Source: a virus
Taxonomy: Duplodnaviria > Caudoviricetes
Virus record (IMG/VR): IMGVR_UViG_3300025671_008697
Length of the DNA: 64,000 bases
Direction: 5' to 3' (one strand)
The stretch's first letter is position 1; every line of letters begins with the position of its first letter. The position numbers were made by a program, and so were the translations under genes. Below are positions 3,123 through 47,079 of this stretch, piece after piece. The notes below the pieces were generated by a model. It was not told where the DNA came from. It saw nothing but the letters and a program-made list of their open reading frames with translations, and searched no databases.

Positions 3123-3205
3123 ATAAAATTTTTTACTTTCGACTAAATAAATTTGTCAATCAATAATTTTTTGACTAAGTAACTTTAATTATCAATAAAT
3201 TCTGT

Positions 3206-14575: not shown

Positions 14576-14854
14576 ATGTGGGAAATGATACAGAATATGG
14601 CAAGTGATAGACTGTGGATTTACACAGGCATCTTTGGATCATTGTTCGGAGCAGCATTTTTGTTCTGGTTTAAAGATACAAAGATGGCTATATGGGCAGT
14701 AGGCAAGTTCGATAGCACATTAGAATACTTGGCAATCCGGTGGGGTTGGACCTGGTTGCAAAATGATCCTAATGCTTGGCGTGTTAAATACCCAAAAATT
14801 ACAGCAAAAATCGACGACTTAGAAACACGCATTCAAAAGTTAGAACAAAAATAA
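14576..14854 (+). CDS. Small membrane protein
   Basis: One TM (LWIYTGIFGSLFGAAFLFWF); TAAATA at 14550-14555 and SD AAGGA upstream. Confidence 0.65.
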   Translation: MWEMIQNMASDRLWIYTGIFGSLFGAAFLFWFKDTKMAIWAVGKFDSTLEYLAIRWGWTWLQNDPNAWRVKYPKITAKIDDLETRIQKLEQK

Positions 14855-14891: not shown

Positions 14892-15725
14892 GTGGATTAC
14901 TATCAAACGTTGGGTGTTAGCAGAACTGCTAATGCCGACGAACTCAAACGTGCCTATAGAAAATTGGCCAGTCAGCACCACCCCGACAGAGGCGGGGATA
15001 CTGCACGATTTCAGGAAATACAGGCTGCTTACGATACATTAAGTGATCCTCAAAAGCGACAACAATACGATAATCCTCAACCACAACATCAGCATTTTGA
15101 ATTTAATTTTGGTCCAGGAGGTATGGATGAGATATTCAGCAACTTTTTTCGAGGACATCAAAATCCATTTCAACATGCTAGGCAACAACCCAGACGCAAT
15201 AAGGATATAAGAGCAGAAGTCGCTATAGGTTTGCAGGAAACATTAACAGATGCTAAACGTACTTTGAATATAAAAAGTCAAAATGGCGTAGTGCAAACTG
15301 TTGATATAACCATACCTCGAGGAGTCAGTGCTGGTACTACTATTAAGTATCCGGGTCTGGGTGATTATCTTTTTGAAAACTTACCCAGGGGTGATCTGTA
15401 CTTAACAGTTAACATTTATCATAATCCAAATTTCGAAGTTTCAGGTTTAGATTTAGTTACAAATTTGACTATAGACTCGTTTGATGCTATACTAGGAGTA
15501 GATGCACAAATTGTAGGCCTAGATGGCAAAGTTTTTACAGTAAGAACTCCCAAAAGTTGTCAGCACGGAACAAAACTCAAGATACCAGGAGAAGGTCTGT
15601 ATAAATTTCAACAGGATATTAAAGGAAACTTGTATGTGAAAATCCACATTAAAGTACCCTTTAATTTGACAGATGAACAACTAGAACAAATTAGAACAAT
15701 TAAACAACAACTAACTGCACGGTAA
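14892..15725 (+). CDS. dnaJ: DnaJ/CbpA-type co-chaperone (no zinc finger)
   Basis: J-domain DYYQTLGV...HHPD; C-terminal GDLYL and KIPGEG motifs. Confidence 0.9.
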
Positions 15726-15728
15726 ATA
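15723..15728 (+). promoter_or_regulatory. TAAATA late-type promoter overlapping the dnaJ stop
   Basis: 5 nt before the clpA ATG, no SD. Confidence 0.55.
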
Positions 15729-15733
15729 TTTTT

Positions 15734-24531: not shown

Positions 24532-27075
24532 ATGGATATTAAGAAGTTTTTAGAAACAGTTGACAAGTTCGACTTTGCAGGTGAAAAACAAGGACAACAA
24601 CCTGGCCAACAATGGCAGGGCACAGACAAAGGTCTGCCTGGTACTAAACTTGTGGGCGAAGAACTTGATTCCAATGTTGTTCTTATTCAAGATCCTAAAG
24701 GCCAATACTTAGACAAACTAGATATAAATGTGGCTGCAAAAAAATATAATTTTAATGCCAATGATATAAAACAACAGTTACAGCATCAAGACTTTACTCA
24801 AATTGGAAATATAAGAGTAATAAAGCCAATAGCAGCAGAAAATGTCATTAAAGAATTAGAAGACTATGTAAAAGAAACTTCTACAGAGCGTAAACTTAAA
24901 CGTGACTTTGATAACTTTGACAGTGAAGATTGGGCAGATTGGGACGCCAAAATTAAAAGACTGAAACAACTTGCCAAACAAGGCGAACTGGTTACTGTAT
25001 GGGACAAAGAGAAACGTGTTTATAAAAATGTTCCTAAAAGCGAAATAAAAGAATACCAAAATAGAATGGATCCTGATGCGCAGGTAACTAGCCCTCCCAG
25101 TCCAGATGCTAGTCAAACTGCTATAGATCAGATTAAAGATAAAATTTTTGCACGTGATGTAGAAGGTGAAACTGTTGAAGAACAAACGCCTACAACTACT
25201 CCCCCAGCACCTGGTGCTCAACAATTTAAATTTACACCGGACCAAGAAAAATGGTTAGGTGGTGCTAATCGTCAAGATCCCGATATCCTAAAAAGAATGC
25301 CTGGGCCAAAACCCGGCGTAGATTATTTTAAAGGTCAAGACGATCAAGCAAGAGCAAAAACATTAAACATCGGTAGACAAAACTTAAACACCGTTAAAGG
25401 TGTAGTTGGTGCACAAAAAGATGCTCCTGAAGTGTTTCCTACAAGGCCAGCGGCTGCACCTGCAGTGGCGGTGCCAAAACCACAGGCTGCTGCACCTGCA
25501 CCTACAAGACCTGTAGTAGTAGACGAACCTAGAAAGACTGCGTTAGATCCTAATGCATACAAAAAAGTACCACAACAAACAATAAAAGTAGATGCACCAG
25601 CAGCAACAACTGCTCCAGCAGCTGCAGTACAACAAGCTGATAGGCCAGCAAGAACAACATGGCGGAGTTTGGCAAAACTAAATCCACAAATTAAAAATCC
25701 AGATAGAATATATCCAGGTCAGGAAATTACATTACCCGATGGTTCTAAAGCAGTTGTCGACAAAGGTGATACACTAAGCGGTATTGCACAACGTTATAGA
25801 CAAGGTGGCTATGCAGATAGTACACCAGTAAAAACAGCGCCTGCAACTGCTACTTCCACACCAGTTAAACCTCAGCCTGATCTAAAAGGAACTGAATTAC
25901 CTAAAGTAAGCGGTAAGGCTGCTAGTCAACTACAAAAAGGTAGAGAATACCGTGCTCGCCAGGCAGCAAAACAAGATAACACAAACCTAGGTGGCAATGC
26001 TGCTGACCCAGAAGCACAGGCTTTTGCAAAACCAGATACACCCAAAGCAGAACCAGGTGTAACTGCTACTGCAAATCTAGGTGTATCACAAGGCGGAATA
26101 GCTGCTGCTTTTGGTGATTTAAAGAAACGTGACGATGGCAATTGGTACTTTCCAGGCGGTGTAAAAGTAACTAATCCAAAAACTATTGCTGCGGCAAACA
26201 AGGCTGCGGTGCAAACTAGTACTAGACCAACTGCAATCGCAAGTAACAATGCACGACAAGAACCAACTAGATCAACCGCAAAGAATTTTAAACCAATGCC
26301 TAGTTACATTTTAAATCAGATACCAGGTGTTGAGAGTAACAACAATCCCAAGGCTGTAGGTGCAGCAGGAGAAACTGGTGCATGGCAAACTATAGCCGGC
26401 ACTTTAAAAGACCCAGGTTACGGTGTTGAACCTGCACGAGATAACAGTCCTGAAGAGTTAGCAAGAGTGGGTAAAGATTATGCTAATGCTATGTACAATA
26501 AGTACAGAGATCCTGAAAAAGCATTGGCTGCATATAATGCCGGACCTGGTGCAGTAGATAAAGCAATTCGTGCAGCATCAATGAGACCTGGTTCAGATTG
26601 GAAAGATTTCATTCCAAAATCTACCAGAGAGCAATATTTGACAAAATACAACTTACAGCCGCCGACAAGATTAGCAGCAAAAGGCGGCGCTACTGTTGAA
26701 TCGCTAATGTCAGACTATCGCAAGTTTGTTGCAGAATACGGCAATCAACAGGCGCCTGACCAACAGGCTACTAGCCAAGACAGTGCAGAAAGTGATGCAG
26801 AAGCAGAACTAAAACGTCAGCGCATGGACCGACGTGTCAGTCAAGCAACACTGGCTGGTTTAAGCGCAGTGCTACCTCCAGGCACAAACACCGCAGTGGC
26901 AGCAACTGCATTAAATAAAATTGTTGATCAGAAGCCACTGAGTCCACAGGAAAACCAAGTTATAGGCACACTGATGCCGTTGTTGGCTAGAGCAGCAGAA
27001 GAACCTAGTACTAGTAGCAGTCTAAAAACCGCATTGGGACGTGCAGGTATGTTAACAAAATTAGGAAAGCAGTGA
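24532..27075 (+). CDS. Modular virion protein with permuted LysM and SLT lytic transglycosylase domain
   Basis: WRSLAKLNPQIKNPDRIYPGQEITLP followed by VDKGDTLSGIAQRY; VESNNNP, ALAAYNAGPG; Pro/Ala-rich linkers. Confidence 0.75.
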   Translation: MDIKKFLETVDKFDFAGEKQGQQPGQQWQGTDKGLPGTKLVGEELDSNVVLIQDPKGQYLDKLDINVAAKKYNFNANDIKQQLQHQDFTQIGNIRVIKPIAAENVIKELEDYVKETSTERKLKRDFDNFDSEDWADWDAKIKRLKQLAKQGELVTVWDKEKRVYKNVPKSEIKEYQNRMDPDAQVTSPPSPDASQTAIDQIKDKIFARDVEGETVEEQTPTTTPPAPGAQQFKFTPDQEKWLGGANRQDPDILKRMPGPKPGVDYFKGQDDQARAKTLNIGRQNLNTVKGVVGAQKDAPEVFPTRPAAAPAVAVPKPQAAAPAPTRPVVVDEPRKTALDPNAYKKVPQQTIKVDAPAATTAPAAAVQQADRPARTTWRSLAKLNPQIKNPDRIYPGQEITLPDGSKAVVDKGDTLSGIAQRYRQGGYADSTPVKTAPATATSTPVKPQPDLKGTELPKVSGKAASQLQKGREYRARQAAKQDNTNLGGNAADPEAQAFAKPDTPKAEPGVTATANLGVSQGGIAAAFGDLKKRDDGNWYFPGGVKVTNPKTIAAANKAAVQTSTRPTAIASNNARQEPTRSTAKNFKPMPSYILNQIPGVESNNNPKAVGAAGETGAWQTIAGTLKDPGYGVEPARDNSPEELARVGKDYANAMYNKYRDPEKALAAYNAGPGAVDKAIRAASMRPGSDWKDFIPKSTREQYLTKYNLQPPTRLAAKGGATVESLMSDYRKFVAEYGNQQAPDQQATSQDSAESDAEAELKRQRMDRRVSQATLAGLSAVLPPGTNTAVAATALNKIVDQKPLSPQENQVIGTLMPLLARAAEEPSTSSSLKTALGRAGMLTKLGKQ

Positions 27076-27076
27076 T

Positions 27077-29410
27077 ATGTTAACCGGAGATCTATTTCAA
27101 CCGCTAACAGAAAAAAAGAAAAAGCCCAAGCCCACCAAGCCAGAGAAATGGGCCTATGCTAAATCTGAAGCAAAGAAAAAGTTTGATGTATATCCCAGTG
27201 CCTACGCTAATGCATGGGCTGCTAAAAAGTACAAAGAACTGGGTGGCGGTTGGCGCATGGGCGAAGACATCGACGAAGCAGATCAACAAAGTGATGCACC
27301 CAGCAAAACCTACGGCAATCAAAAACTAGTTAACATAATGCGTAAGGCTGCTGAAGTTCCTGGCACTGGCCTATCCAATGACCAACGTATGTTTGTGGCC
27401 ATGTACGATGAACTAGAAGATGCAGTAGAAAAAATTGGTGATGTAGAAAAACAAAATCAAGAACTACGCCAACAAGTTGCCAAACAGGCACAACCTGCGG
27501 CTAAAGCAGCAGCGCCAGCAAAAGAACCTACAGCAGCACAGGTCAAAGCACAGCCCGCAGCAGAACCTGCAGTACAACAAGTTGTGCAAAATATTACACA
27601 AGTTCTACAACGTGCAGAGCAGAGTGCTGAAACACCAGAACAACAAAAAGAACTGGCTGCTGCCAAAGAAAGAATTGCAGACTTAGAAGACAAAATGAGT
27701 CAACTCAGCAATGCTGACGTAAAAGAGATTGAACGTACATTTGTTGAGATTGAAAAAGGCGGCATCAAAATGGGTGACGTCAAACGTTTGTTGCGTGTAG
27801 TAGACAAGCGTATTGACCAAAGCGCAAAAGAAAAACAAGCGGCAGAAAAACCAATTACAGTAGATCAACCAGAACCAGAAAAACCAATTACAGTAGATCA
27901 ACCTAAGCCAGGAGAAATTTCCACAAACACAATAATAGATTTTATGAAGAAAACCGATGACACACTCGATGATATTAAAGCAACTGATCAGGAACAAAAT
28001 AAAGTTATAAAAGTGGTTCCCGACAACACAGACAAATTAAATGCAATTATTGCTTCTTCCCCAACATTACGAGCAAAGTATCCAGATGTCCAACCACAAC
28101 CTATACAACCATCACCAGACAACAAAGTAGTTCAATTTCGCCCACGCACCGCACAACCTCCTGCACAACCTCCTGCACAACCTCCTGCACAACCTCCTAA
28201 ACAACGCATAGCCGTAGTTCCAAACCCAAATGATGAACTACTAACAGGAACAAACAATGAAAGTATCAATGAACAACAACAAGAAACATTTGATTTTAGA
28301 TTGCCTGCAGCAAGAGTTATTGGCGTATTAGATGATTTCTTTGCAACAAAATGGGATGGTGCTTTTAAGTATTTTGAAAAAACTTTCCATGACGAAGATA
28401 ACGAAGAAGAGGAAGATCCATGGGGAGAAGGTCTTACTCAACTGGACAATGCATTTTTAGTTCCTGCAACCATTGTTAGAAAACTTGGTACATTAACAAA
28501 CGCTTTTATTGACTTAGAAGACTATCACACCCAAATTTATAATCATCCAGAATACAATGCTATGTTTGGTCATGTTATGTTTCCTGCATTTAAAGGAAAA
28601 ATTTACAACAAACCTGTTAAAGCAAGTGAAACTAAAATGGGCTTCGATGATGATTTACAATTTTTTGAATACTATTTTAATGCACTTACAAATGCTGTTA
28701 AAACAAAAATTCATCCCTTCATGAAACAAGTAAAAGAGTTTGTCGAAACTCAATACGCTGAAAATAAAGATGACAATCATGCTATGATGCAGTATTTTGT
28801 ACGGAATGTATGGAATCCGTACATGAATGAAATTAATAAACTACATGCAGCAAGAGAAAAATTAAAGCCTGTTGTTTTTAACATGAGGCAAATCTTAAGA
28901 ACAAAACCTCAAGGTGAACTATTTGAGCGCAAGAAGAAAAAGAAAAAGTCCAAGAGCAAGAAAGCATTCGGTGGTTACTACTTCCCAGGCTATCACTACT
29001 ATGGACAGGGCACTGCCGAGATCAGCGACGGCGGTGGTGACGGTGGTGGCGAAAGCATGTTTGAAGTTGTCACAAAGAATCGTTCACCAGAAGAAACAGG
29101 TTCATTAGACAGTTACTACGGTCGTCGCAGACAGCCACACAAAGTTGTAGATGGCAAACGTGTCGAACTCACAGACCGAGAAGAAATCCAGCAATATTTG
29201 GATGCCTACGAAAACCAAACAGACCGCAAGGACTACGGTGATTTAGATGAAACACGTTTGTATTTCCGCACTGTGGCCACACTGGCAGAAAGTCTTGAAC
29301 AGGACTTTGGCATGCAACAAGACGACAAAGGTTGGTATCTAACAGCACGCAGCGGACGTCAACGTATCCTAGACGCAGAGCGTGCATTTGGTGAACCAAG
29401 GATCCTCTAA
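27077..29410 (+). CDS. Modular putative internal head polyprotein with basic peptides, coiled coil and Pro-rich repeats
   Basis: MLTGDLFQPLTE then KKKKPKP; LFE then RKKKKKKSKSKK; AQPP repeats. Confidence 0.6.
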   Translation: MLTGDLFQPLTEKKKKPKPTKPEKWAYAKSEAKKKFDVYPSAYANAWAAKKYKELGGGWRMGEDIDEADQQSDAPSKTYGNQKLVNIMRKAAEVPGTGLSNDQRMFVAMYDELEDAVEKIGDVEKQNQELRQQVAKQAQPAAKAAAPAKEPTAAQVKAQPAAEPAVQQVVQNITQVLQRAEQSAETPEQQKELAAAKERIADLEDKMSQLSNADVKEIERTFVEIEKGGIKMGDVKRLLRVVDKRIDQSAKEKQAAEKPITVDQPEPEKPITVDQPKPGEISTNTIIDFMKKTDDTLDDIKATDQEQNKVIKVVPDNTDKLNAIIASSPTLRAKYPDVQPQPIQPSPDNKVVQFRPRTAQPPAQPPAQPPAQPPKQRIAVVPNPNDELLTGTNNESINEQQQETFDFRLPAARVIGVLDDFFATKWDGAFKYFEKTFHDEDNEEEEDPWGEGLTQLDNAFLVPATIVRKLGTLTNAFIDLEDYHTQIYNHPEYNAMFGHVMFPAFKGKIYNKPVKASETKMGFDDDLQFFEYYFNALTNAVKTKIHPFMKQVKEFVETQYAENKDDNHAMMQYFVRNVWNPYMNEINKLHAAREKLKPVVFNMRQILRTKPQGELFERKKKKKKSKSKKAFGGYYFPGYHYYGQGTAEISDGGGDGGGESMFEVVTKNRSPEETGSLDSYYGRRRQPHKVVDGKRVELTDREEIQQYLDAYENQTDRKDYGDLDETRLYFRTVATLAESLEQDFGMQQDDKGWYLTARSGRQRILDAERAFGEPRIL
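27844..27903 (+). repeat. 27-bp direct repeat, two copies, 33-bp period (EKPITVDQP)
   Basis: agaaaaaccaattacagtagatcaacc at 27844 and 27877. Confidence 0.9.
28151..28198 (+). repeat. Perfect 12-bp tandem repeat x4 (AQPP)
   Basis: gcacaacctcct repeated four times. Confidence 0.95.
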
Positions 29411-30036
29411 TGCGTAGAGATCCAACAGAACTGTTCAAACCTGAAGACAGCGAACTTCGCAGAATTAAGAACAAGTACGTTCCTGAGTGGAGCATGTTGG
29501 ATTATACTGTGCTAGAATGTGCATGGGAGTTTGTAGACGCACAGACTGCGATGCGTTTTGCCTATGAAATGTACAGACTGGGCGAAGACATGGATCACAA
29601 CGCTGTGGTTAAAATAGATCATAACAGTGTTGAAGTACAGATTAGAACCGGCGACGTTGACGGATTAACTATATTAGATTTTGAATTTGCACTTAAAGCA
29701 ACTGCTGTTGCAGAACAGTTAAAGGGCGACAGACTCAGCAAAGTCAAAAACGAACTGGGCGAAGCCTATCAGGGTGGACTACGCAAGTGGTTTAAAGAAA
29801 AATGGGTCAACATTGCCAAGAAGAAAAAAGGCGGCGGCTACGAAGAATGCGGCAGCAGTGGTGACAAAAAAGGCTATGCCAAATGCGTACCAGCTGCAAA
29901 AGCTGCTGGTATGTCATCTAGTGAAAAGAAAAGTGCAGTACAACGTAAACGTAGCGCACAACGTAAAGCAGGCAGACCCGGCAAGAAAAGTGGCGCTAAA
30001 GGCAAGGCTCCAATAAGGGTAAGTACAAAGAAATGA
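29410..30036 (+). CDS. Pterin-4a-carbinolamine dehydratase-like domain fused to a basic Cys-containing module
   Basis: AMRFAYEMYRLGEDMDHNAVVKIDHNSVEVQIRTGDVDGLTILDFEFA resembles PCD; after LGE comes GGLRKWFKEKWV...KCVP. Confidence 0.5.
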   Translation: MRRDPTELFKPEDSELRRIKNKYVPEWSMLDYTVLECAWEFVDAQTAMRFAYEMYRLGEDMDHNAVVKIDHNSVEVQIRTGDVDGLTILDFEFALKATAVAEQLKGDRLSKVKNELGEAYQGGLRKWFKEKWVNIAKKKKGGGYEECGSSGDKKGYAKCVPAAKAAGMSSSEKKSAVQRKRSAQRKAGRPGKKSGAKGKAPIRVSTKK

Positions 30037-31469
30037 AAATCGTTGAACTAAAATGCTGGCCTGGCTATGAGCGTGTACCTGGAACCAAAGCAGGTGCTGT
30101 AGGTAGTTGCCGCAAAACGAGTTCTAAAAACGAAGATGCTGCTAACCCAGCCAATCTTGGCCTAACTATATTTGACATAGACGACACACTAATGCATACT
30201 ACTGCAAAGATACGTGTTGTCAAAGACGGCAAAACCGTACGTGAATTAACCAATCAGGAGTTTAATAACTACAAACTAGAACCAGGCGAACAGTTTGACT
30301 TTGGTGAGTTTCGTAGTGCAGAAAAGTTTGCCAAGGAAAGTGAACCCATACGCCCTATGATTGCTAAACTAAAAGCAATCATGAAAAACGCAGGAAACAG
30401 CAAAGTTATAATGCTGACTGCAAGAGCAGACTTTGATGACAGAGATACTTTCCTAGACACTTTCCGCAAGTACGGTATAGACATTGACAACATCCATGTG
30501 CACCGCGCAGGCAATATTCCAGGACCAGAAACTCCAGCGCTGAAAAAAGCAGTTTGGGTACGCAGATATTTAGACACTGGCATGTACAACAGAGTCAGAC
30601 TGTACGATGATTCAATGAGCAATCTGCGTGCATTCAAAGATTTAAAAGATGAATATCCTGCAGTAGACTTTAAGGCCTATTACGTAGGTCCCAGCGGCAG
30701 TAGCACTGTTGTAGAAGTAGACCTTAAAGGCAAGTTAGCAACAGGTGCTGTGGCAGGCGCACTGGCTGTGGGTCAGGGTGGCGCACTTGTTAACAAACTC
30801 ACAGACCCCGACAGTCCTCGCTATCAGGTTCCTAAAGATGCAGCCACATACCAAATGAAGGAACCACCACGTGAACTGCCCAAGTCACTGCCTGCTGCAC
30901 AGCCTAAACAACAGACTGCACCTCAGGTCCGAGCAGAACCAAAGGCAGTTAATTTGACTGGCAGTCCTTACGAAACACTGATGCGTAAAGTAGCACAAGC
31001 CAGTGGCATACAGGGCACAGAACTGGCAGCGTTTATGGCACAGATGGCGCACGAAAGTATGGACTTTACTCGCATGTACGAAAAGGGTATCAAACGTTAC
31101 TTTAATCGCTATGATCCCAGATACAATCCAGGCACTGCTAAAATATTAGGCAACACTCGTGCAGGCGATGGCTACAAGTACAGAGGCAGAGGTTTTATAC
31201 AGTTAACTGGGCGTGACAACTATACCCGTGCAGGCAGAGACCTAGGTATTGACTTAGCGAACAAACCAGACTTAGCAGCTGATCCTAAAATAGCAGCACA
31301 AATTGCAGTATGGTTTTGGAAAAACAGAGTGCAACCAAAGGTAGATGACTTCAGCAACGTAAATGATGTAACACGCAGTATCAATCCCAACATGCGTGGT
31401 CTGAAAGATCGTGCAGAAAACTTCAAACAGTATCAGGTTGCTATGGCAGACACTGGAGCAGATTCATGA
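30033..31469 (+). CDS. Modular protein: basic Cys peptide, HAD phosphatase and GH19 lysozyme-like domain
   Basis: MKIVE; KCWPGYERV; IFDIDDTL, MLTAR, LYDDS; AQMAHES, YRGRGFIQLTGRDNY. Confidence 0.75.
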   Translation: MKIVELKCWPGYERVPGTKAGAVGSCRKTSSKNEDAANPANLGLTIFDIDDTLMHTTAKIRVVKDGKTVRELTNQEFNNYKLEPGEQFDFGEFRSAEKFAKESEPIRPMIAKLKAIMKNAGNSKVIMLTARADFDDRDTFLDTFRKYGIDIDNIHVHRAGNIPGPETPALKKAVWVRRYLDTGMYNRVRLYDDSMSNLRAFKDLKDEYPAVDFKAYYVGPSGSSTVVEVDLKGKLATGAVAGALAVGQGGALVNKLTDPDSPRYQVPKDAATYQMKEPPRELPKSLPAAQPKQQTAPQVRAEPKAVNLTGSPYETLMRKVAQASGIQGTELAAFMAQMAHESMDFTRMYEKGIKRYFNRYDPRYNPGTAKILGNTRAGDGYKYRGRGFIQLTGRDNYTRAGRDLGIDLANKPDLAADPKIAAQIAVWFWKNRVQPKVDDFSNVNDVTRSINPNMRGLKDRAENFKQYQVAMADTGADS

Positions 31470-31945
31470 GATTATTTCAGTTTGAAGCAGAACTGCCACC
31501 AGAAGCAATTGAAAAACTTCAACAGTATAAACAGCAACGTCAGCCAACTTATGCAGAACTTAGACGTAAGGCTCTGCAGGTTGAAGAGTTAGCAGGCATG
31601 GCCAAAAAGATTGAAGACCTGCGTGCCAGAGTAGAACGTGTATACGGTGATTTACCTCCAGGCATGCAGGCAGATTTGGAACTAGCAGATTTATATCCTG
31701 TGCCAGAAACAGATCAGGACTATGTTGATCTGAAACAAAGATTTGTAAAAGACATAGCACTACTACAAAATTATGTACAGAGCAAACGCAGTCTCTACAA
31801 AAGAGAAAGCGTGAACTACAATGGCGCTTTTTGGTTATCACAGGTACAGGGCAGCGATAGTCCTGTTAGCCCAGTTGGTGCAGTTCCAAAAGCACAACGC
31901 ATAAATACTAAAAAGGCGCCAATTAATGTTAAGAAATCTGATTAG
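31466..31945 (+). CDS. Putative head-targeted hypothetical protein
   Basis: MRLFQFE N-terminus; helical. Confidence 0.55.
   Translation: MRLFQFEAELPPEAIEKLQQYKQQRQPTYAELRRKALQVEELAGMAKKIEDLRARVERVYGDLPPGMQADLELADLYPVPETDQDYVDLKQRFVKDIALLQNYVQSKRSLYKRESVNYNGAFWLSQVQGSDSPVSPVGAVPKAQRINTKKAPINVKKSD
31902..31907 (+). promoter_or_regulatory. TAAATA late-type promoter inside the end of the upstream CDS
   Basis: 18 nt before ATG 31926, with AAGG SD between. Confidence 0.45.
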
Positions 31946-32357
31946 ACTGGTAGAAGCAGCAGAGCGTAACTGCCCTGTGGCAACCTACGACATTGACGTC
32001 AACCTTAAAAATCGACAGACAGCAATTGACAGTTATCATTACGGTCCTGCTAATCCAGCAGCGCCAGGAAAATATTGGAAAGATAGTGCCAAGCAGTGGA
32101 AGATAGACGAAAAAACTGCAAAGACAATGCTGTGTGCTAACTGTGGTGCATTTGATGTCAGCGACAGTATGCGTGACTGCATTGCCAATGGTATTAAGGG
32201 TGACGAAAAGGCTGTAGATGCAAACGCCAGTATTAACTTAGCAGACTTAGGATACTGTAACTTCTTGCATTTTAAATGCGCCGGGGATAGAAGTTGCACT
32301 GCTTGGATAGCAAATGGCCCCATAACAGAAAAAGACAAAGGCAAGAAGGCAGACTAG
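31926..32357 (+). CDS. Putative head-targeted Cys-containing protein
   Basis: MLRNLIRLVE N-terminus; CANCGAF and GYCNFLHFKCAGDRSC suggest metal binding. Confidence 0.6.
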   Translation: MLRNLIRLVEAAERNCPVATYDIDVNLKNRQTAIDSYHYGPANPAAPGKYWKDSAKQWKIDEKTAKTMLCANCGAFDVSDSMRDCIANGIKGDEKAVDANASINLADLGYCNFLHFKCAGDRSCTAWIANGPITEKDKGKKAD

Positions 32358-32358
32358 C

Positions 32359-32793
32359 ATGGAAGATTTAATCAAAGCAATGAAAATTGCATTTAGCACA
32401 GAGTTTAGTTTTTATTTAAAAGCACACAATTTTCATTGGAACGTAGAAGGTCCAGATTTTCAAGAGTATCACAAACTGTTTGAAACTATTTACGAAGAAG
32501 TCTACGAAAGCATTGATCCATTTGCTGAAAACATTCGCAAACTGGGCAGTTACACTCCTGGTAGTTACACACGCCTTAGTATGCTAACACAGATCGACGA
32601 CGAAACTGGCGTACCACCAGTAATGGGTATGGTAGAAGAACTGTTAAGTGACAGTGATAAGTCCGTCAAAGTATTCAAGATGGTTTACGACCTAGCAGAA
32701 CGTGAAGGTGAACACGGTTTGAGTAACTTCCTTGCTGAACGTATGGATGCACATCGTAAACACAGTTGGATGTTAAGAGCAAGTCTCAAGTAA
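32359..32793 (+). CDS. dps: Dps/ferritin-like DNA protection protein
   Basis: KAHNFHWNVEGPDFQEYHKLFETIYEE ferroxidase signature; HRKHSWML. Confidence 0.9.
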   Translation: MEDLIKAMKIAFSTEFSFYLKAHNFHWNVEGPDFQEYHKLFETIYEEVYESIDPFAENIRKLGSYTPGSYTRLSMLTQIDDETGVPPVMGMVEELLSDSDKSVKVFKMVYDLAEREGEHGLSNFLAERMDAHRKHSWMLRASLK

Positions 32794-32795
32794 GA

Positions 32796-33377
32796 ATGCA
32801 AACAAAAGACTTTTATGAAGCCAGTCCCAGTACACTAGGCGGGAGTTTTACACCTGACTTAGTAACAAGCAAATTATGGCTAGCACGTAAGGTGCGTGCT
32901 TTAATGACTAAAACTCGTGTCGAAAAATACAAAACAGTATATGTACTGGGCAGTTGGTTTGGTAATATGGCTATATTTTTGCAGCAAAAAGGTGTTGAAT
33001 TTGATCGAATAGTGTTAGTAGACATTAACAAAGATTGGATGCAAATTAGCAAAGAACTATTAGAACCAATTACAGACAAACTAGATACCATAATTCAGGA
33101 CGCAAACAAAATTACCTATTCTGACCAGCAGCCAATATTAGTAATTAATACCAGTTGTAATGAAATGGCAAATGAGGGTTGGTTAGACCGTATTCCTGCG
33201 GGATCAACGGTTGCTCTGCAGGCTAGAAATAATGTACAATCAGTGGACGTAGTAACAGACACCGTAGAAGAATTTAATAATCAATTTCCGTTGAGTGATG
33301 TGTTTTACTTGGGCGAGCGTAAACTACGAGATCCGGAAGTTAGTTATCAAAGGTTTATGAAAATAGGAATCAAATAA
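32796..33377 (+). CDS. SAM-dependent methyltransferase-like protein
   Basis: VYVLGSWFG motif I variant, [15 protein letters not shown]; start moved to ATG 32796 (MQTKDFYE). Confidence 0.6.
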
Positions 33378-34585
33378 TGAAAAAACGCAATTACTCACAG
33401 GAAACTGTAGACAAACTCAGAGGCAGTGTACACATTGACCATACCCTGGCTAGACTGGGTGCAAATAAACTACGCCACTTGTTAGCCACAGAACCATATA
33501 TTAACACACTAGGTGCTTACAATGGGCAACAGGCAGTACAACATGCCAAGGCAGGACTTAAAGCAATTTACCTGTCAGGCTGGCAAGTAGCGGCAGCAAA
33601 TAATACTGCACTGCAAACTTATCCGGATCAAAGTCTATATCCAGTAAACTCAGTGCCCAATGTGGTAAAAGGTATCAACAATGCTTTCCGTCGTGCGGAT
33701 CAAATTGAACACGTAGAAGGCAACGTGACCACAGACTACTTCCTGCCCATTGTAGCAGATGCAGAAGCAGGGTTTGGCGGTGCACTTAATGTCTATGAAC
33801 TTATGATGGCCATGATTGAAGCAGGCGCTGCCGGCGTACACTTTGAAGACCAACTAAGTTCAGAAAAGAAATGCGGACATTTAGGTGGCAAAGTACTAAT
33901 TCCCACAGGACAGGCAATTCGTAATCTTAATGCTGCACGGCTGGCAGCAGACGTAGCAGGTGTTAGCACAGTTATTATGGCACGCACAGATGCAGAAGCT
34001 GCGACACTGATTACCAGCAATCACGACCCACTAGACAAGGATTTTATTATTGATGAGCGCACTGAAGAAGGTTTTTACAAATTTAAAAATGGTATCGATG
34101 CTTGTATTAGCAGAGGTCTTGCTTATGCCCCTTACGCTGATCTCTTATGGTTCGAAACTAGCACACCTGACGTGGCACAGGCTAAGAAATTTGCCGATGC
34201 CATACATGCCGAGTATCCTGACCAGTTGCTTGCTTATAACTGTAGCCCTAGTTTCAATTGGCGTAAGTTCCTAAGCGAAGACGAATGCGAAACTTTCCAA
34301 CGTGAAATTGCTGAACTAGGATTCAAGTTTCAGTTTATTACACTGGCAGGATTCCACAGTGTTAACCTTGCTACATTTGAACTTGCTGAAGCATATAAAC
34401 AACGTGGGATGGCAGGCTATGCAGAAATGCAACAACGTGAGTTTGCGGCAGTAGACAGAGGCTTTACCACTGTAAAACATCAACGCGAAGTTGGCGTTAG
34501 TTATTTTGACGTTATCAGTGAAGCAGTTGGTGCTACCAGTACCGTTGCTAACAAATCTTCAACAGAAGCAGATCAATTTCATTAA
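33377..34585 (+). CDS. aceA: Isocitrate lyase (short type)
   Basis: [25 protein letters not shown], catalytic [27 protein letters not shown]. Confidence 0.95.
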
Positions 34586-34588
34586 GTA
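34583..34588 (+). promoter_or_regulatory. TAAGTA late-type promoter variant
   Basis: Overlaps the aceA stop, 6 nt before the boxB ATG, no SD. Confidence 0.5.
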
Positions 34589-34594
34589 TTTACA

Positions 34595-36010
34595 ATGACA
34601 ATAAATTACTCAGAGCGTATACCTAACAATGTTAATTTAAGTGAAGACAGAGCACTACAACGTGCTCTTGAAGGATGGCAACCAAACTTTTTAAACTGGT
34701 GGCAGGACATGGGACCAGAAGGCAGTACCAACTATGACGTATATCTGCGTACTGCTGTCAGTGTAGATGCACAGGGATGGGCACAATTTGACCATGTTAA
34801 GATGCCAGACTATCGTTGGGGTATTTTCCTAAACCCTGCTAAAGAAGGTCGCAAGATTCATTTTGGTGATCATAAAGGTGAAGCGGCCTGGGACAGTGTG
34901 CCAGGTGAATACCGTGCAAACCTAAGACGTATTATTGTGACACAGGGCGACACAGAACCTGCGTCAGTGGAGCAACAACGGCACTTGGGTTTGACTGCTC
35001 CCAGTTTGTATGACCTACGTAACTTATTTCAGATCAACGTAGAAGAAGGCCGTCACCTGTGGGCCATGGTATATTTGTTACACAAATACTTTGGGCGTGA
35101 TGGTAGAGAAGAAGCAGAAGACTTACTGGCACGTAACAGTGGTAGCGCAGACAATCCACGTATCTTGGAAGCATTTAACGAAAAGACTCCAGACTGGCTC
35201 AGTTTCTTTATGTTTACTTACTTTACAGACAGGGACGGCAAGTTTCAGTTAAAAGCATTGAGTGAAAGTGCATTTGATCCCTTAGCACGTACTACACAAT
35301 TCATGCTTACAGAAGAAGCACATCATATGTTTGTAGGCGAGAGCGGCGTAGCAAGGATCCTACAACGCACTGCACAAGTTATGAAAGAACTTGGCACAGA
35401 TGATCCGCAACGTTTACGTAGTGCTGGTGTAATTGATTTGCCAACAATCCAACGTTACTTAAACTTCCACTTCAGTAAGACTGTGGACTTATTTGGTGCA
35501 GACGAAAGCAGTAATGCTGCTACATTCTACTCAACAGGACTAAAAGGACGTTATGATGAAGAAAAGCACGATGACGACCATGTACTAAAAGACAGTGAGT
35601 ACAGCGTTTTAAGTGCAGACTTAACAGAGCGCAGTGTACCCATGCTGAATGCACTTAATGAAGTGCTACGTGATGACTACATCAAAGACAGTGCCAGTGG
35701 CGTTGGACGTTGGAATCGTATTTTAAACAAGGCAGGCATCGACTTTGAACTTACAGTTCCACATAAAGCATTTAATCGTAACATCGGACCACTAGCAGGC
35801 TTAACAATTAGTCCCGAAGGGCGTGTTGTATCACAGGAACAATGGCAGCAAAGTCAGAGCCAGTGGTTACCCACACCAGAAGATCGTGCATTTGTACAAA
35901 GTCTAATGGGCCGTGTTACTGAACAAGGACAGTATGCCAACTACATTGCACCACCTTCTGTGGGTATCAACAAACAACCAATGGATTTTGATTACGTAAG
36001 GTTTAATTAA
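34595..36010 (+). CDS. boxB: Benzoyl-CoA 2,3-epoxidase oxygenase subunit BoxB
   Basis: IPNNVNLSEDRALQRALE, YLRTAVSVD, KMPDYRWGIF; di-iron ligand motifs GDTEPAS, EEGRH, FTDRDG, TEEAHH; full length 471 aa. Confidence 0.9.
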   Translation: MTINYSERIPNNVNLSEDRALQRALEGWQPNFLNWWQDMGPEGSTNYDVYLRTAVSVDAQGWAQFDHVKMPDYRWGIFLNPAKEGRKIHFGDHKGEAAWDSVPGEYRANLRRIIVTQGDTEPASVEQQRHLGLTAPSLYDLRNLFQINVEEGRHLWAMVYLLHKYFGRDGREEAEDLLARNSGSADNPRILEAFNEKTPDWLSFFMFTYFTDRDGKFQLKALSESAFDPLARTTQFMLTEEAHHMFVGESGVARILQRTAQVMKELGTDDPQRLRSAGVIDLPTIQRYLNFHFSKTVDLFGADESSNAATFYSTGLKGRYDEEKHDDDHVLKDSEYSVLSADLTERSVPMLNALNEVLRDDYIKDSASGVGRWNRILNKAGIDFELTVPHKAFNRNIGPLAGLTISPEGRVVSQEQWQQSQSQWLPTPEDRAFVQSLMGRVTEQGQYANYIAPPSVGINKQPMDFDYVRFN

Positions 36011-36660
36011 TGTTAGAAACAATCTGTGATACAATGAATCATGCATATCAGCGCGGCTGGATTACCAGTCGTGACGGTAATGTCAGCATTAGGCATCACG
36101 ACAGAGATCATTTTTACATTACACCCAGTGGAGTACGCAAGCAAACACTACAGCCTGATCAATTTAAAAAAATTGAAATACTTAAACAACCAGTAGAAAA
36201 CAGGCCATTACCTTTTGAATACAATTGGCGTGAATTAGAGTATACTGACATCAGCCGTAACTTACGGCCAAGCGGAGAAATTCCTTTACACTTTGGTTTG
36301 CAGCGTGAAATACACAGCGACGAAGTAAGAGTGGTCATGCACTTTCATCCCACTTACACCGTGGCTGCTATGCATGCCGGAATTGAACTACAAGATTTGG
36401 TCAAAGACTTTCCTGAACTAAGTAGATATACATCGGTTGCTCCTAATGTACCGGATGTGCCGCCGATCAGTCAACAGTTGGCAGACTATACAATTGATAG
36501 ACTTGATGTTTGTCCAATAACTGGTTTGGTAAAGTATGATATTATTGGTATTAAAGGACACGGCGTAGTAGCAGTAGATACTACGCCCTGGAGATGTTTT
36601 GAACACATTGAACGTTTAGAACATATCTGTCAAATAGTTTTAGCAAGTGGACGACATTAA
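36010..36660 (+). CDS. Class II aldolase/adducin-family protein
   Basis: DGNVS, YITPSGV, MHFHPTY, GHGVV. Confidence 0.85.
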   Translation: MLETICDTMNHAYQRGWITSRDGNVSIRHHDRDHFYITPSGVRKQTLQPDQFKKIEILKQPVENRPLPFEYNWRELEYTDISRNLRPSGEIPLHFGLQREIHSDEVRVVMHFHPTYTVAAMHAGIELQDLVKDFPELSRYTSVAPNVPDVPPISQQLADYTIDRLDVCPITGLVKYDIIGIKGHGVVAVDTTPWRCFEHIERLEHICQIVLASGRH

Positions 36661-36663
36661 AGT

Positions 36664-37293
36664 ATGTTAGTCATCTTGGGTGACAGTTTCTGCTCTGAAA
36701 AGGAGGGCTGGCCTTCTATGCTAGCCAATATGCTTAATACAGATTTTGTTTGTCACGGAACACCTGCTGCTAGTTGGTGGATTACCTATAAAGATTGTCA
36801 AAGATTAGAAAATAAGTTGTCAAATGCAAAAATAATTATATTTTGCCACACACATCCTGCTAGAATATTAACTGAAAATTTAAATATTCTTCAATGCGAT
36901 TATAGAGCAAAATCAAAAAATGAAGAGCAAGCCGCCGGTAGTTTATATATGAAATATATTCATAATCACGAAGTTCATGATTGGTCGATGTCTGCTTGGT
37001 TTAAGGAATTAAATGAACGGTACAAGCAAGCCACAGTTTTGCACCTATTTGCTTTTGACGATTCAATGAGTCTAGGAAAATATCTCACCAATGGAATTAA
37101 AGCAAAGACATCGCTTACTGAATTAAGTTTATTAGAGTTTTCATCAGATGACATCAATTTGCTGTCAGGCGATAGTAGAGCAAATCATTTTAGCCAATAC
37201 AATAACAAAATATTAGCTAAACAAATTTATAATGGATTAATCAATGGTATAGATTTTGATTTTGACAAAAGTGAATTTAATTTCGGAACTTAA
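36664..37293 (+). CDS. SGNH/GDSL-like hydrolase-fold protein (AT-rich)
   Basis: N-terminal LGDSF and late RANH. Confidence 0.45.
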   Translation: MLVILGDSFCSEKEGWPSMLANMLNTDFVCHGTPAASWWITYKDCQRLENKLSNAKIIIFCHTHPARILTENLNILQCDYRAKSKNEEQAAGSLYMKYIHNHEVHDWSMSAWFKELNERYKQATVLHLFAFDDSMSLGKYLTNGIKAKTSLTELSLLEFSSDDINLLSGDSRANHFSQYNNKILAKQIYNGLINGIDFDFDKSEFNFGT

Positions 37294-37304
37294 ATGGAAT
37301 AAAA

Positions 37305-38453
37305 ATGGCAATTGATAATAAAATTTTAGAAATATTAGGTAGAGAAGAATACAGGCAAGGCAACACCATAGAACTTATAGCAAGTGAAAACTTTGCCAGT
37401 GAAGTAGTGCGTAATCTCTGTGCTAGTGTGTTTACCAACAAGTATGCAGAAGGTATTCCTGGCAGACGTTTTTATAATGGTTGCGAACACGCAGATGAAA
37501 TTGAACGTCTGGCAATTGAATACGCTACAACACTGTTTGGGTGTCAATTTGCCAATGTTCAACCACATAGCGGTGCTAACGCCAACCTTGCAGTATTCAA
37601 AGCATTACTTAAACCTGGAGATGTTATCTTAGGTATGGATCTGAGTAATGGTGGACATCTGAGTCATGGAAGTCATGTTAACCTAAGTGGTGCTTGGTTC
37701 AGAGCTGCCAAATATACATTAGGACAAGATGGCCTAATAGACTATATAGAAGTAGATAAATTGGCTCAAGAACTAAAACCTAAATTGATCATTGCAGGTG
37801 CTAGTAATTATAGCCAAGTTATCGATTGGGCAAGGTTTAGGCAAATTGCCGACAAAGTAGGTGCAAAACTATTATGTGACATAGCACACTACAGTGGATT
37901 GATTGCCGGCGGACAATACCCCAATCCTTTCCCACATGCTCATATCGCTACTAGCACTACACACAAAACATTACGCGGTCCAAGAGGTGGAATAATTCTA
38001 TGGAACGACAACGATTTATCGGCAAAAATTAACAACGCAGTTTTTCCTGGCACACAAGGCGGACCTTTGATGCATATTATTGCTGCCAAGGCACAGTGTT
38101 TTCACGAGGCATTGCAAAAAGATTTCAGAGAATACAGCCGGCAAGTTATCTTAAATGCAAAAGCAATGGTAGAAGTATTCAAAGAAAATGATGTAGATAT
38201 AGTTAGTAATGGTACTGAATGTCACATGTTTACTTTAGACTTAGGCAAAGAATCTTATAGTGGAAGACAACTTGCAGATAGACTAGAGGAAAAAGGAATT
38301 ACTGTGAATAAAAATGCAGTACCAGGAGATACCAGAAGTTTTGTTGAAACTAGTGGAATCAGAATTGGCACTGCTGCTGAAACTACTAGAGGACACAACG
38401 AAGAATGGTTTAGAGAACTTGCTCAGAATATTGTTAATATTTTGAGAACTTAA
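37305..38453 (+). CDS. glyA: Serine hydroxymethyltransferase
   Basis: LIASENF, NKYAEG, NVQPHSG, GGHLSHG, PLP-lysine TTHKTLRGPRGG, SGIRIGT. Confidence 0.95.
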   Translation: MAIDNKILEILGREEYRQGNTIELIASENFASEVVRNLCASVFTNKYAEGIPGRRFYNGCEHADEIERLAIEYATTLFGCQFANVQPHSGANANLAVFKALLKPGDVILGMDLSNGGHLSHGSHVNLSGAWFRAAKYTLGQDGLIDYIEVDKLAQELKPKLIIAGASNYSQVIDWARFRQIADKVGAKLLCDIAHYSGLIAGGQYPNPFPHAHIATSTTHKTLRGPRGGIILWNDNDLSAKINNAVFPGTQGGPLMHIIAAKAQCFHEALQKDFREYSRQVILNAKAMVEVFKENDVDIVSNGTECHMFTLDLGKESYSGRQLADRLEEKGITVNKNAVPGDTRSFVETSGIRIGTAAETTRGHNEEWFRELAQNIVNILRT

Positions 38454-44406: not shown

Positions 44407-47079
44407 ATGTCATACGTAGACGCATTATTTGATAAACAACGTGACAGGATTCACGTAGTAGAACGTGTTAACGGCGAACGCCGCTATCAAGAGTTTGCGG
44501 CTGATTATACGTTTTACTATGACGATCCCAAGGGCAAGTATCGTACTATCTATGGCACGCCTGTAAGCAAGTTTACAACACGCAACGGCAAAGAGTTTCA
44601 AAAAGAAATGCGTATCCAAGGCAGCAAGCGTCTTTGGGAAAGCGACTTCAAGCCAGTGTTTAGATGCTTGGCCACAAACTTTCTTGGCGCAGAACCCCCA
44701 AAACTACAGACAGCATTTTTCGATATTGAGGTAGACTTTGATCCCGAACGTGGATTCAGTAAACCCGAGGATCCATTCAACGCTATCACTGCTATCAGTG
44801 TGTACTTGGATTGGATGGACAAGTTAGTTACACTGGCTATTCCGCCCAAGTCGATGAGTTGGGAAACCGCAGAAGAAATTTGTAATAGGCATAGTGACTG
44901 TTTCTTGTTTGACAGAGAAGAAGACTTATTAAACACATTCTTAGACTTAGTTGATGATGCTGACATCCTGTCAGGTTGGAACAGTGAAGGCTTCGACATT
45001 CCTTATACCGTGGGACGCATTACTCGTGTGCTCAGCAAAGACGATACACGCAGACTTTGTTTGTGGGGACAGTTTCCCAAACAACGTGAATTTGAACGCT
45101 TTGGTGCCACAAACATTACGTTTGACTTAATCGGCCGTGTACATATGGACTATATGCAACTGTATCGCAAGTATACCTATGAAGAACGCCATAGTTACAG
45201 TTTGGATGCCATCGGCGAATATGAACTAGAAGAACGTAAAACTGCCTATGAAGGCACACTGGATCAGTTGTACAATAAAGACTTTGACACATTTATTGAA
45301 TACAACAGACAGGATACTCGACTGTTAGCAAAACTGGACAAGAAACTCCGCTTTCTAGACTTGGCTAACACCATTGCACATGACAACACAGTATTGTTGC
45401 AGACCACAATGGGCGCAGTAGCAACCACGGAGCAGGCAATTATCAATGAAGCACACAGCCAAGGACTGGTCGTACCTAACAGAAAGAACAGAGATGAGGG
45501 GGAAGAAACAACAGCGGCAGGTGCCTATGTTGCTTATCCCAAAACAGGCATCCACGAATACATCGGAGCCATTGACATCAACTCGCTCTATCCCTCGGCT
45601 ATTAGAGCGCTCAACATGGGACCAGAAACCATCGTCGGACAGATCCGACCCGTAATGACTAAAAAGTTTATTCAAGACAAAATGACTGGAGGTACTAGTT
45701 TTGCTGGTGCTTGGGAAGGTCTGTTTGGCAGTCTTGAATATGAAGCAGTCATGAAAGGTGATCCCACAGTTGAACTTACAATTGATTGGGAACAGGATGG
45801 TACCAGTGATGTTGTCAGTGCCGCAGACGTTTGGCGCTTAATCTTTGACAGCAACAAGCCCTGGGTACTCAGTGCCAATGGCACTATCTTTACAATTGAA
45901 CGCAAAGGTATTGTGCCTGGCTTGCTGGAACGTTGGTATGCTGAACGTAAACAGATGCAGGCCAAACTTAAAGACTGTATTGCAGAAGGTAACGAAGCAG
46001 ACATTGAGTACTGGGACAAGCGACAGTTAGTTAAAAAGATTAACTTGAACAGTTTGTATGGTGCTATTTTGAATCCGGGTTGTAGGTTTTTCGACCACAG
46101 GATCGGACAGAGTACCACACTGTGTGGCAGGGTAATTGCCAAGCACATGGATGCATTTGTCAATGAAGCAATCACTGGCGAGTACGACCACGTAGGCAAA
46201 AGTGTTATCTATGGCGACACTGACTCTGTGTATTTCAGTGCTTGGCCAATAGTAAAAGAAGATGTTGAAGCAGGACGTATGCAGTGGAACAAAGACATTG
46301 CTATCCAAGTCTACGACAACATTGCTGACCAAGTAAATGAAAGTTTCCCAGCATTTATGGAACGTGCCTTTCACTGTCCAAGAGAGAACGGCAGCATTAT
46401 CCGAGGCGGTAGAGAGATTGTGGCTAGTAAAGGTTTGTTTATTAAAAAGAAACGCTATGCCGCACTAATCTATGACAAAGAAGGCAAACGCAAAGATATC
46501 AAAGGCAACCCTGGTGAAGTAAAAGCCATGGGCCTGGACTTGAAGCGTTCGGATACTCCTAAGGTTGTACAAGACTTCTTAAGTGAAATCTTATTAAAGG
46601 TGTTAACAGGCAGCGGCAAAGAAGATATTATCGAACGTGTGCGTGAATTCAAGTATGAGTTTCAAGAACGTCCTCCATGGGAAAAAGGTACGCCCAAGCG
46701 TGTTAACAACCTGACCAAGTATACCGCAGAAGAAAAAAGATTAGGTAAAGCCAACATGCCCGGACACGTTCGTGCCGCAATGAACTGGAACAACTTATGT
46801 CGTATGCACAGTGACAAGTTTAGTATCCAAATTGTTGACGGTATGAAAGTGATTGTGTGCAAACTCAAAGATAATCCACTTAAATACACCAGTGTTGCTT
46901 ATCCCACAGACGAAACACATATCCCGCAATGGTTTAAAGACTTGCCGTTTGACGACAGCACAATGGAGTCCACTATTGTAGACCAAAAAGTAGAAAACTT
47001 GTTGGGTGTGTTGGAATGGCAAATTGCTGAAAACACAGATATCAATACTACATTTGATACATTGTTTAGTTTCGAATAA
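44407..47079 (+). CDS. Family B DNA polymerase with 3'-5' exonuclease
   Basis: FDIEVD, GWNSEGFDIPY, YNRQD, DINSLYPS, KINLNSLYG, YGDTDS, KKRY. Confidence 0.97.
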   Translation: MSYVDALFDKQRDRIHVVERVNGERRYQEFAADYTFYYDDPKGKYRTIYGTPVSKFTTRNGKEFQKEMRIQGSKRLWESDFKPVFRCLATNFLGAEPPKLQTAFFDIEVDFDPERGFSKPEDPFNAITAISVYLDWMDKLVTLAIPPKSMSWETAEEICNRHSDCFLFDREEDLLNTFLDLVDDADILSGWNSEGFDIPYTVGRITRVLSKDDTRRLCLWGQFPKQREFERFGATNITFDLIGRVHMDYMQLYRKYTYEERHSYSLDAIGEYELEERKTAYEGTLDQLYNKDFDTFIEYNRQDTRLLAKLDKKLRFLDLANTIAHDNTVLLQTTMGAVATTEQAIINEAHSQGLVVPNRKNRDEGEETTAAGAYVAYPKTGIHEYIGAIDINSLYPSAIRALNMGPETIVGQIRPVMTKKFIQDKMTGGTSFAGAWEGLFGSLEYEAVMKGDPTVELTIDWEQDGTSDVVSAADVWRLIFDSNKPWVLSANGTIFTIERKGIVPGLLERWYAERKQMQAKLKDCIAEGNEADIEYWDKRQLVKKINLNSLYGAILNPGCRFFDHRIGQSTTLCGRVIAKHMDAFVNEAITGEYDHVGKSVIYGDTDSVYFSAWPIVKEDVEAGRMQWNKDIAIQVYDNIADQVNESFPAFMERAFHCPRENGSIIRGGREIVASKGLFIKKKRYAALIYDKEGKRKDIKGNPGEVKAMGLDLKRSDTPKVVQDFLSEILLKVLTGSGKEDIIERVREFKYEFQERPPWEKGTPKRVNNLTKYTAEEKRLGKANMPGHVRAAMNWNNLCRMHSDKFSIQIVDGMKVIVCKLKDNPLKYTSVAYPTDETHIPQWFKDLPFDDSTMESTIVDQKVENLLGVLEWQIAENTDINTTFDTLFSFE

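Follow-up and report, generated by a model that had tools for sequence, protein, structure and literature searches.

A huge uncultivated phage encodes BoxB, the oxygenase component of benzoyl-CoA 2,3-epoxidase, which initiates the aerobic degradation of benzoate-type aromatic compounds. The gene lies in a 64,000-nucleotide stretch of viral DNA (Duplodnaviria; Caudoviricetes; IMG/VR record IMGVR_UViG_3300025671_008697), the whole of which we refer to as the window. It is an intact gene of cellular origin that has long been resident in phage genomes under purifying selection, and a second group of phages has acquired boxB independently. We propose, with a probability of about 0.6, that boxB was captured from a Burkholderiales bacterium and kept as an auxiliary metabolic gene (AMG), whose product would epoxidise benzoyl-CoA together with partner proteins supplied by the host.

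Phage BoxB is full length and retains its active-site residues

The window BoxB scores 874.9 bits against the TIGR03225 profile (cut-off 499.1), its residues 3-470 covering profile positions 1-471 of 471. Residues 3-471 align with residues 2-473 of A. evansii BoxB (PDB 3PER; 780 bits, E = 1e-233), and three further PDB entries match. The di-iron ligands of A. evansii BoxB are Glu120, Glu150, His153, Asp211, Glu240 and His243 (PMC5489048). All six are present in the window BoxB, as E121, E151, H154, D212, E241 and H244, and an alignment shows them to be invariant in both of the phage BoxB clades described below. The residues that position the benzoyl group, Gln116, Thr119, Ser123, Phe193, Phe203/206 and Thr210 (PMC5489048), are likewise kept in the aligned window BoxB, as Q117, T120, S124, F194, F204, F207 and T211. 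More broadly, of 205 alignment columns with at least 98% invariance among 289 cellular BoxB sequences, the clade to which the window BoxB belongs has kept 204 unchanged.

Hence the original prediction, made from the DNA letters alone, was right that boxB is full length with all di-iron ligand motifs. The window BoxB and the A. evansii enzyme (PDB 3PER, 3PF7, 3PM5 and 3Q1G) have the same length, align end to end, and share both the metal ligands and the substrate shell; the window BoxB differs in being encoded by a phage, in having no adjacent boxA or boxC, and in carrying Tyr rather than Trp at residue 450. Phage BoxB is most likely still a di-iron oxygenase that epoxidises benzoyl-CoA.

boxB is resident in a phage genome

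The window derives from a huge phage with T4-like replication genes. Its family B DNA polymerase (PolB) has its best tblastn matches in the jumbo phages Phosso (50.7%) and Atu_ph07 (46.3%), and a virion-type lytic protein with SLT and LysM domains and a GH19 lysin are encoded in the block upstream of the genes for isocitrate lyase (ICL), BoxB and a class II aldolase-family protein. Elsewhere the window encodes DnaJ, a ClpB-type ATPase and a deazaguanine-type locus. The same boxB gene is found on a contig of at least 210 kb, and the exact BoxB protein is recorded on contigs of up to 210 kb. Contigs from eight samples, comprising a European Nucleotide Archive series and two Joint Genome Institute metagenomes, share one gene order: lytic protein, Pterin_4a protein, GH19 lysin, ferritin, ICL, BoxB, aldolase and serine hydroxymethyltransferase (SHMT), and on to PolB. 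Across the 5,077 bases from ICL to SHMT these contigs differ by 0-4 mismatches. Of two diverged variants, one (locus L106) keeps ICL-BoxB-aldolase, and the other (L105) keeps BoxB-aldolase-SHMT and lacks the gene for a 209-amino-acid protein that lies between aldolase and SHMT in the window. The GC content at third codon positions (GC3) of boxB is 0.354, as compared with a mean of 0.326 +/- 0.060 for open reading frames (ORFs) in the window and a median of 0.85 for boxB genes of Burkholderiales.

The original prediction had named a chimeric assembly as one outcome that would overturn it. An identity of 79-85% at the amino-acid level to cellular BoxB could at first sight suggest contamination, and boxB might in principle be a chimera, a cellular contaminant, or a recent transfer that drifts neutrally without function. 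However, identical ICL-boxB-aldolase junctions recur in assemblies from eight different samples, boxB is intact in two variants at a synonymous divergence (dS) of 0.4-0.7 with a ratio of non-synonymous to synonymous substitution (dN/dS) of 0.03, and the gene has phage-like GC3 with phage genes on both sides. Given the repeated synteny, the two diverged variants and the phage-like GC3, a chimera is excluded for practical purposes, and the view of boxB as artefact or passenger is effectively refuted. Thus, boxB lies reproducibly inside a phage genome, flanked by phage genes, as is expected of a phage AMG.

boxB was captured from a cell and is under purifying selection

A search of 5.8 billion proteins identified the nearest non-phage relatives of the window BoxB, P0011/P0241, at 85% identity; typical Burkholderiales BoxB proteins are 77-80% identical. 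We built a maximum-likelihood tree of 77 BoxB sequences, five of them from the window clade. The phylogeny against cellular BoxB that the original prediction had proposed as a check places the window clade as sister to cellular P0011/P0241, with a support of 100 in the Shimodaira-Hasegawa-like approximate likelihood-ratio test (SH-aLRT), and places the two together within the Burkholderiales (SH-aLRT 100). Since the phage clade and its cellular sister are nested in this way, the direction of transfer was from cell to phage. P0011/P0241 are encoded in cellular clusters of the order boxR-boxC-boxB-boxA, with CoA ligase and beta-oxidation genes. The sister Burkholderiales genomes (GCA_038125065.1 and GCA_038145215.1) are of moderate GC content, with 48% GC at the locus and a boxB GC3 of 0.45; unlike the window BoxB, the sister protein is encoded in a boxR-boxC-boxB-boxA catabolic cluster and keeps Trp at residue 450. 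A DNA search of 401 sampled Burkholderiales genomes gave a boxB match in 96 of them, one being an unpublished genome, and none was closer than about 70% nucleotide identity.

Between phage boxB variants, dN/dS is 0.029-0.037 at a dS of 0.44-0.74. We conclude that phage boxB is under strong functional constraint, that is, purifying selection, in phage genomes, where it has long been resident. A cellular origin combined with purifying selection is again what is expected of a phage AMG.

Phages acquired boxB twice

A search of IMG/VR for BoxB also detected viral contigs with a homologue 59% identical to the window BoxB. Searching with this homologue in turn yielded 19 clusters of 435-437-amino-acid proteins (P0121-P0139), which we term the short clade, and a profile scan located six short-clade loci in IMG/VR (L002, L003 and L111-L114). 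These proteins are 57-59% identical to the window BoxB. They have two deletions, of 18 and 15 residues (33 in total), and EEANH in place of EEAHH, and they keep the six ligands. The genomic context is T4-like: L111 encodes a gp55-type late sigma factor, a gp46/gp47-type nuclease and a peptide deformylase, and L002 encodes PolB, RecA/UvsX-like and DnaB/gp41-like proteins. DnaJ and ClpB are encoded on short-clade contigs, and some contigs of this clade come from Tara Oceans samples.

In the 77-sequence tree the short clade is monophyletic, has a long stem, and falls outside the sampled alpha- and betaproteobacterial BoxB. An approximately unbiased test rejects a grouping of the short clade with the window clade (difference in log-likelihood 98, p = 1e-4), the tested grouping having been named after the tree had been seen. 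We conclude that phages acquired boxB twice, independently. Like the window BoxB, the short-clade proteins are encoded by a solo boxB in phage genomes, have all the ligands and, in 17 of the 19 clusters, have Tyr in place of Trp at residue 450. We did not find boxA, boxC, ICL or aldolase genes beside boxB in the short-clade loci, and the SHMT neighbour is also absent there.

Some further features are common to the two groups of phages. A single-pass membrane protein of 92-97 amino acids with a C-terminal coiled coil is encoded both in the window (14576-14854) and in L002 (5837-6127; 57% identical), and in L002 and L003 its gene lies directly 3' of boxB. We considered this protein as a redox partner of BoxB and rejected it because of its single membrane pass and its lack of Cys and metal motifs. 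The gene pair for DnaJ and a ClpB-type ATPase in the window (14892-18028) has a counterpart in a short-clade BoxB phage (L094, 5529-8637; ClpB 55% and DnaJ 38% identical), where it lies about 850 bp downstream of boxB. On the T4-like contig L111 (2103-7940), kinase-like and gp46/SbcC-like genes occur twice in a row, as a tandem duplication or an assembly artefact.

Both phage clades replaced the same invariant tryptophan

Residue 450 (window 35942-35944) is Trp in 289 of 289 cellular BoxB sequences and Tyr in 9 of 9 window-clade sequences and in 17 of the 19 short-clade clusters (P0123-P0139); the two basal short-clade clusters still have Trp. Because both separately founded clades carry Tyr and the basal short-clade clusters carry Trp, the change arose twice in phages. 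By our own count on the pairwise alignment, the residue corresponds to Trp452 of A. evansii BoxB. The window codon is TAC, which is two changes from TGG; hence, AT pressure does not explain the Tyr. The other eleven invariant Trp columns are unchanged, except for two that lie within a short-clade deletion. When the window BoxB was modelled with AlphaFold2 from an alignment of 20 rows, the mean predicted local distance difference test score was 54, too poor for placing residue 450, and the model was not used.

No boxA or boxC was found with phage boxB

In cellular loci, boxC adjoins boxB in 72 of 81 cases and boxA does so in 75 of 81. Co-encoded boxA and boxC, which count among the marks of a BoxB, do not accompany boxB in the window examined. 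The BoxA and BoxC proteins of the sister lineage gave no tblastn match in the window below E = 3 (best E = 3.5), in agreement with the original prediction, and neither a Fer4/FNR-type reductase nor a BoxC-type crotonase is among the Pfam families listed for the window between about 2.7 and 63 kb. Alignment-derived scans of IMG/VR, with patterns taken from Burkholderiales sequences and of limited sensitivity, detected no relatives of BoxA or BoxC. The statement that no characterised phage BoxB was known also holds: BoxB had no tblastn match in 50,697 GenBank phage records, and we found no literature report of a phage-encoded BoxB. Two readings had been put forward for the solitary gene, namely that host partners serve it or that its role is modified, and this part of the original prediction is right. 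With the closest cellular lineage carrying boxC-boxB-boxA, dependence on the BoxA and BoxC of the host is the natural one.

We favour the first of these readings. A huge phage would have taken boxB from a Burkholderiales bacterium and retained it as an AMG. During infection, phage BoxB would take electrons from the host reductase BoxA and hand 2,3-epoxybenzoyl-CoA to the ring-opening BoxC of the host. This would maintain or raise the flux of benzoate-type aromatic carbon to acetyl-CoA, succinyl-CoA and formate during the shutdown of host gene expression. According to a review (PMC4498308), BoxB is monomeric, and BoxA is far scarcer than BoxB and needed only in minor amounts; the known properties of the enzyme are thus compatible with a phage contribution limited to its bulk catalytic part. 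Its substrate, its reliance on host proteins and any gain for the phage are inferred.

Several observations weigh against this proposal. BoxC co-purifies with BoxB and relieves the inhibition of BoxB by its own product (PMC4498308), and extra BoxB alone, product-inhibited without BoxC, might therefore give little gain. The change of Trp450 to Tyr in both phage clades, together with the loss of 33 residues and the EEAHH-to-EEANH change in the short clade, could signal altered partner use or function. In addition, the absence of boxA and boxC applies to the 64-kb window and its flanks, within a genome of 210 kb or more.

Phage BoxB might instead be repurposed or independent of the host partners, drawing on another electron donor, acting on another aryl-CoA, or serving mainly to consume O2 or to deoxygenate epoxides. 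The solitary occurrence of boxB in both phage clades, each founded independently, would fit this view, as would the parallel replacement of Trp450 that AT pressure does not account for, and the two short-clade deletions with the H243N change; a deoxygenase activity has also been proposed for BoxB (PMC5489048). Nevertheless, the metal ligands and benzoyl-positioning residues are all intact, the window clade departs from only one of the 205 invariant columns, a dN/dS of 0.03 indicates no relaxation, and BoxB is reported to be highly specific for benzoyl-CoA (PMC4498308). We consider such a change of role unlikely.

More speculatively, solo BoxB could be a recurrent phage-adapted enzyme with retuned partner docking or electron exchange, as opposed to a simple copy of a host gene. 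Two acquisitions, replacement of the same Trp, and the trimming of two surface segments in a marine lineage would be in line with this idea, which we put forward tentatively and think doubtful as it stands. An enzyme retuned in this way might run on a general reductant of the host or no longer require BoxC, in which case phages would drive benzoate-type ring activation in hosts, or under conditions, where the cellular system is limiting. We know of no structure of BoxB in complex with a partner, and the parallel Trp-to-Tyr change offers a testable handle on which BoxB surface matters for partners.

An aromatic carbon module around boxB is not supported

The ICL, boxB and aldolase genes are adjacent, co-directional ORFs, exactly where the original prediction had placed them (Table 1). 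It had gone further and described them as a module that links aromatic carbon to the glyoxylate shunt.

Table 1. Features of the window that bear on boxB and its surroundings
Feature	Coordinates	Strand	Supporting match or remark
Packed co-directional block: SLT/LysM, Pterin_4a, GH19, ferritin, ICL, BoxB, aldolase, SHMT	24532..38453	+	
Ferritin/Dps-like protein, 144 aa, two genes upstream of ICL	32359..32793	+	PF00210; identical gene in eight other assemblies
Isocitrate lyase (ICL), 402 aa	33377..34585	+	NF011645, 680 bits (cut-off 562); PF00463, E = 5e-103
boxB, benzoyl-CoA 2,3-epoxidase oxygenase component, 471 aa	34595..36010	+	TIGR03225
Class II aldolase/adducin-family protein, 216 aa	36010..36660	+	PF00596, 95.7 bits
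SGNH/GDSL-like (DUF6071-type) viral protein, 209 aa, variable insert	36664..37293	+	N-terminal GDS motif, read by eye
Serine hydroxymethyltransferase (SHMT), 382 aa	37305..38453	+	PF00464, 472.9 bits; NF000586, 547.5 bits (cut-off 335)
Family B DNA polymerase (PolB), phage backbone marker	44407..47079	+	phrog_262, 661.7 bits

ICL is identified both by its equivalog profile and by the KKCGH catalytic motif at residues 164-168. It is a short, phage-type form that matches profile positions 27-428 of 430, with about 25 fewer N-terminal residues than the E. coli-type model. ICL has been reported in 98 huge-phage genomes (bioRxiv 10.1101/2025.02.27.640493), and a marine viral genome of 179 kb carries an aceBA operon (PMC5332604). 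The window ICL is likewise phage-encoded. It differs from other phage ICL genes in that it adjoins boxB and has no malate synthase partner, whereas the examined relatives lie between nrdA and nrdB: copies 88-91% identical occupy this position, without BoxB, on contigs of other huge phages (335 kb and 147 kb). In L107 (5490-11656) and L109 (5670-10505), ICL is flanked by the genes for the large and small subunits of ribonucleotide reductase, with NifU, Fe-S assembly and glutaredoxin genes in the vicinity.

The aldolase reaches none of the NCBIfam equivalog cut-offs. The start of its gene and the boxB stop share 1 nt, and the protein has candidate metal-binding motifs, MHFH and KGHG, read by eye. 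Its clusters in the Atlas are 93-100% viral. We identified relatives at 70 IMG/VR loci (56-76% identical), none of which has BoxB. Sixty of the 70 have no neighbour gene of the window in their flanks, two have ICL upstream, and three have SHMT adjacent. In the two loci with ICL upstream, the position between ICL and aldolase is either vacant (L140, 4545-6633) or taken up by a DAO-family oxidoreductase dependent on flavin adenine dinucleotide (L167, 3521-6633), which suggests a variable oxidoreductase slot. Downstream of ICL/aldolase, both of these loci encode a fatty-acid-desaturase-like di-iron protein.

As for the remaining neighbours, the 209-amino-acid protein has no Pfam match, and its nearest Atlas clusters are viral, some of them annotated DUF6071 or Lipase_GDSL. 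In L105, SHMT follows directly after aldolase; the 209-amino-acid gene must therefore reflect a recent insertion or deletion in the cluster. A 208-amino-acid protein with a pterin-4a-carbinolamine dehydratase domain (29410-30036) is encoded in the same gene block as the metabolic cluster, and a homologue of the ferritin (56% identical) is encoded near aldolase in L179.

If ICL, BoxB and aldolase formed one module, it would use the glyoxylate shunt to feed aromatic carbon into acetyl-CoA assimilation. In favour of this, the three genes are neighbours on one strand and almost certainly share a transcript, their order is kept in L106 (and BoxB-aldolase-SHMT in L105), and the box pathway does yield acetyl-CoA. 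However, both ICL and aldolase occur elsewhere without BoxB, the former between nrdA and nrdB and the latter at 70 loci where ICL or SHMT is rarely near; the slot between them is empty or differently filled in L140 and L167; and the short-clade phages have neither gene beside boxB. Moreover, start/stop overlaps of 1-4 nt are usual throughout the window and are not specific to these three genes. The shunt would pair aceA with aceB, and the Pfam annotations for about 2.7-63 kb of the window contain no malate synthase family. Nor does the box pathway need the glyoxylate shunt, since its products are acetyl-CoA and succinyl-CoA. A dedicated module is thus quite improbable, and this part of the original prediction is not borne out. 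Instead, the region resembles a variable slot for accessory genes that received boxB in one lineage. ICL, aldolase and SHMT would then be separate, widely shared phage accessory genes, co-expressed with boxB and not mechanistically coupled to it. Any theme among the recurrent neighbours (ICL, DAO-type oxidase and SHMT) may be one of glyoxylate and glycine metabolism, not aromatic carbon.

boxB is probably transcribed by read-through

boxB lies inside a 14-kb co-directional block (Table 1) in which gaps range from -28 to +11 nt throughout, with 1021 nt before it and 106 nt after it. The spacing suggests that the block is one transcription unit. Only 9 nt separate the ICL stop from the boxB ATG (GTATTTACA). 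The proposal that boxB stands on a late, leaderless-type motif fails on two counts: TATTTACAATG with at most one mismatch occurs 3 times in the window as compared with 3.46 expected, and the ICL-boxB spacer differs in L105 (GGATTAAAA). Because boxB lies within a 14-kb run without real gaps, read-through is likelier than a promoter of its own. Sigma-70-like promoters and terminators are not enriched between 23.4 and 39.2 kb, their counts equalling the shuffled expectation.

We also considered CTAAATA, which resembles the core of T4-type late promoters, as a candidate late promoter, and rejected it since its 20 matches (14.1 expected) are not a significant excess. On the + strand it is found in six intergenic gaps ahead of gene blocks, at 3143, 11545, 20304, 23987, 38535 and 47083, with none between 23987 and 38535.

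Discussion

Phage AMGs are known for photosynthesis, sulfur, nitrogen, methane and central carbon metabolism. Phage BoxB is a single-subunit AMG for a reaction not previously tied to phages, and it is found in two lineages. Single-subunit AMGs have precedents in psbA of cyanophages and pmoC of large freshwater phages; in these cases, too, the phage encodes a single catalytic or limiting subunit, and the other components of the enzyme come from the host. The reaction class of phage BoxB differs from these, being the epoxidation of an aromatic ring in a CoA thioester.

Benzoyl-CoA is a hub in the degradation of many aromatic compounds, including lignin- and humic-derived acids, phenylalanine products and pollutants. 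Phages that encode BoxB probably keep the benzoyl-CoA epoxidation step running in infected cells. One practical consequence is that surveys using boxB as a marker gene may include viral copies. More broadly, the presence of boxB under strong selection in two phage lineages suggests that infection can sustain or reshape the turnover of aromatic carbon in natural waters.

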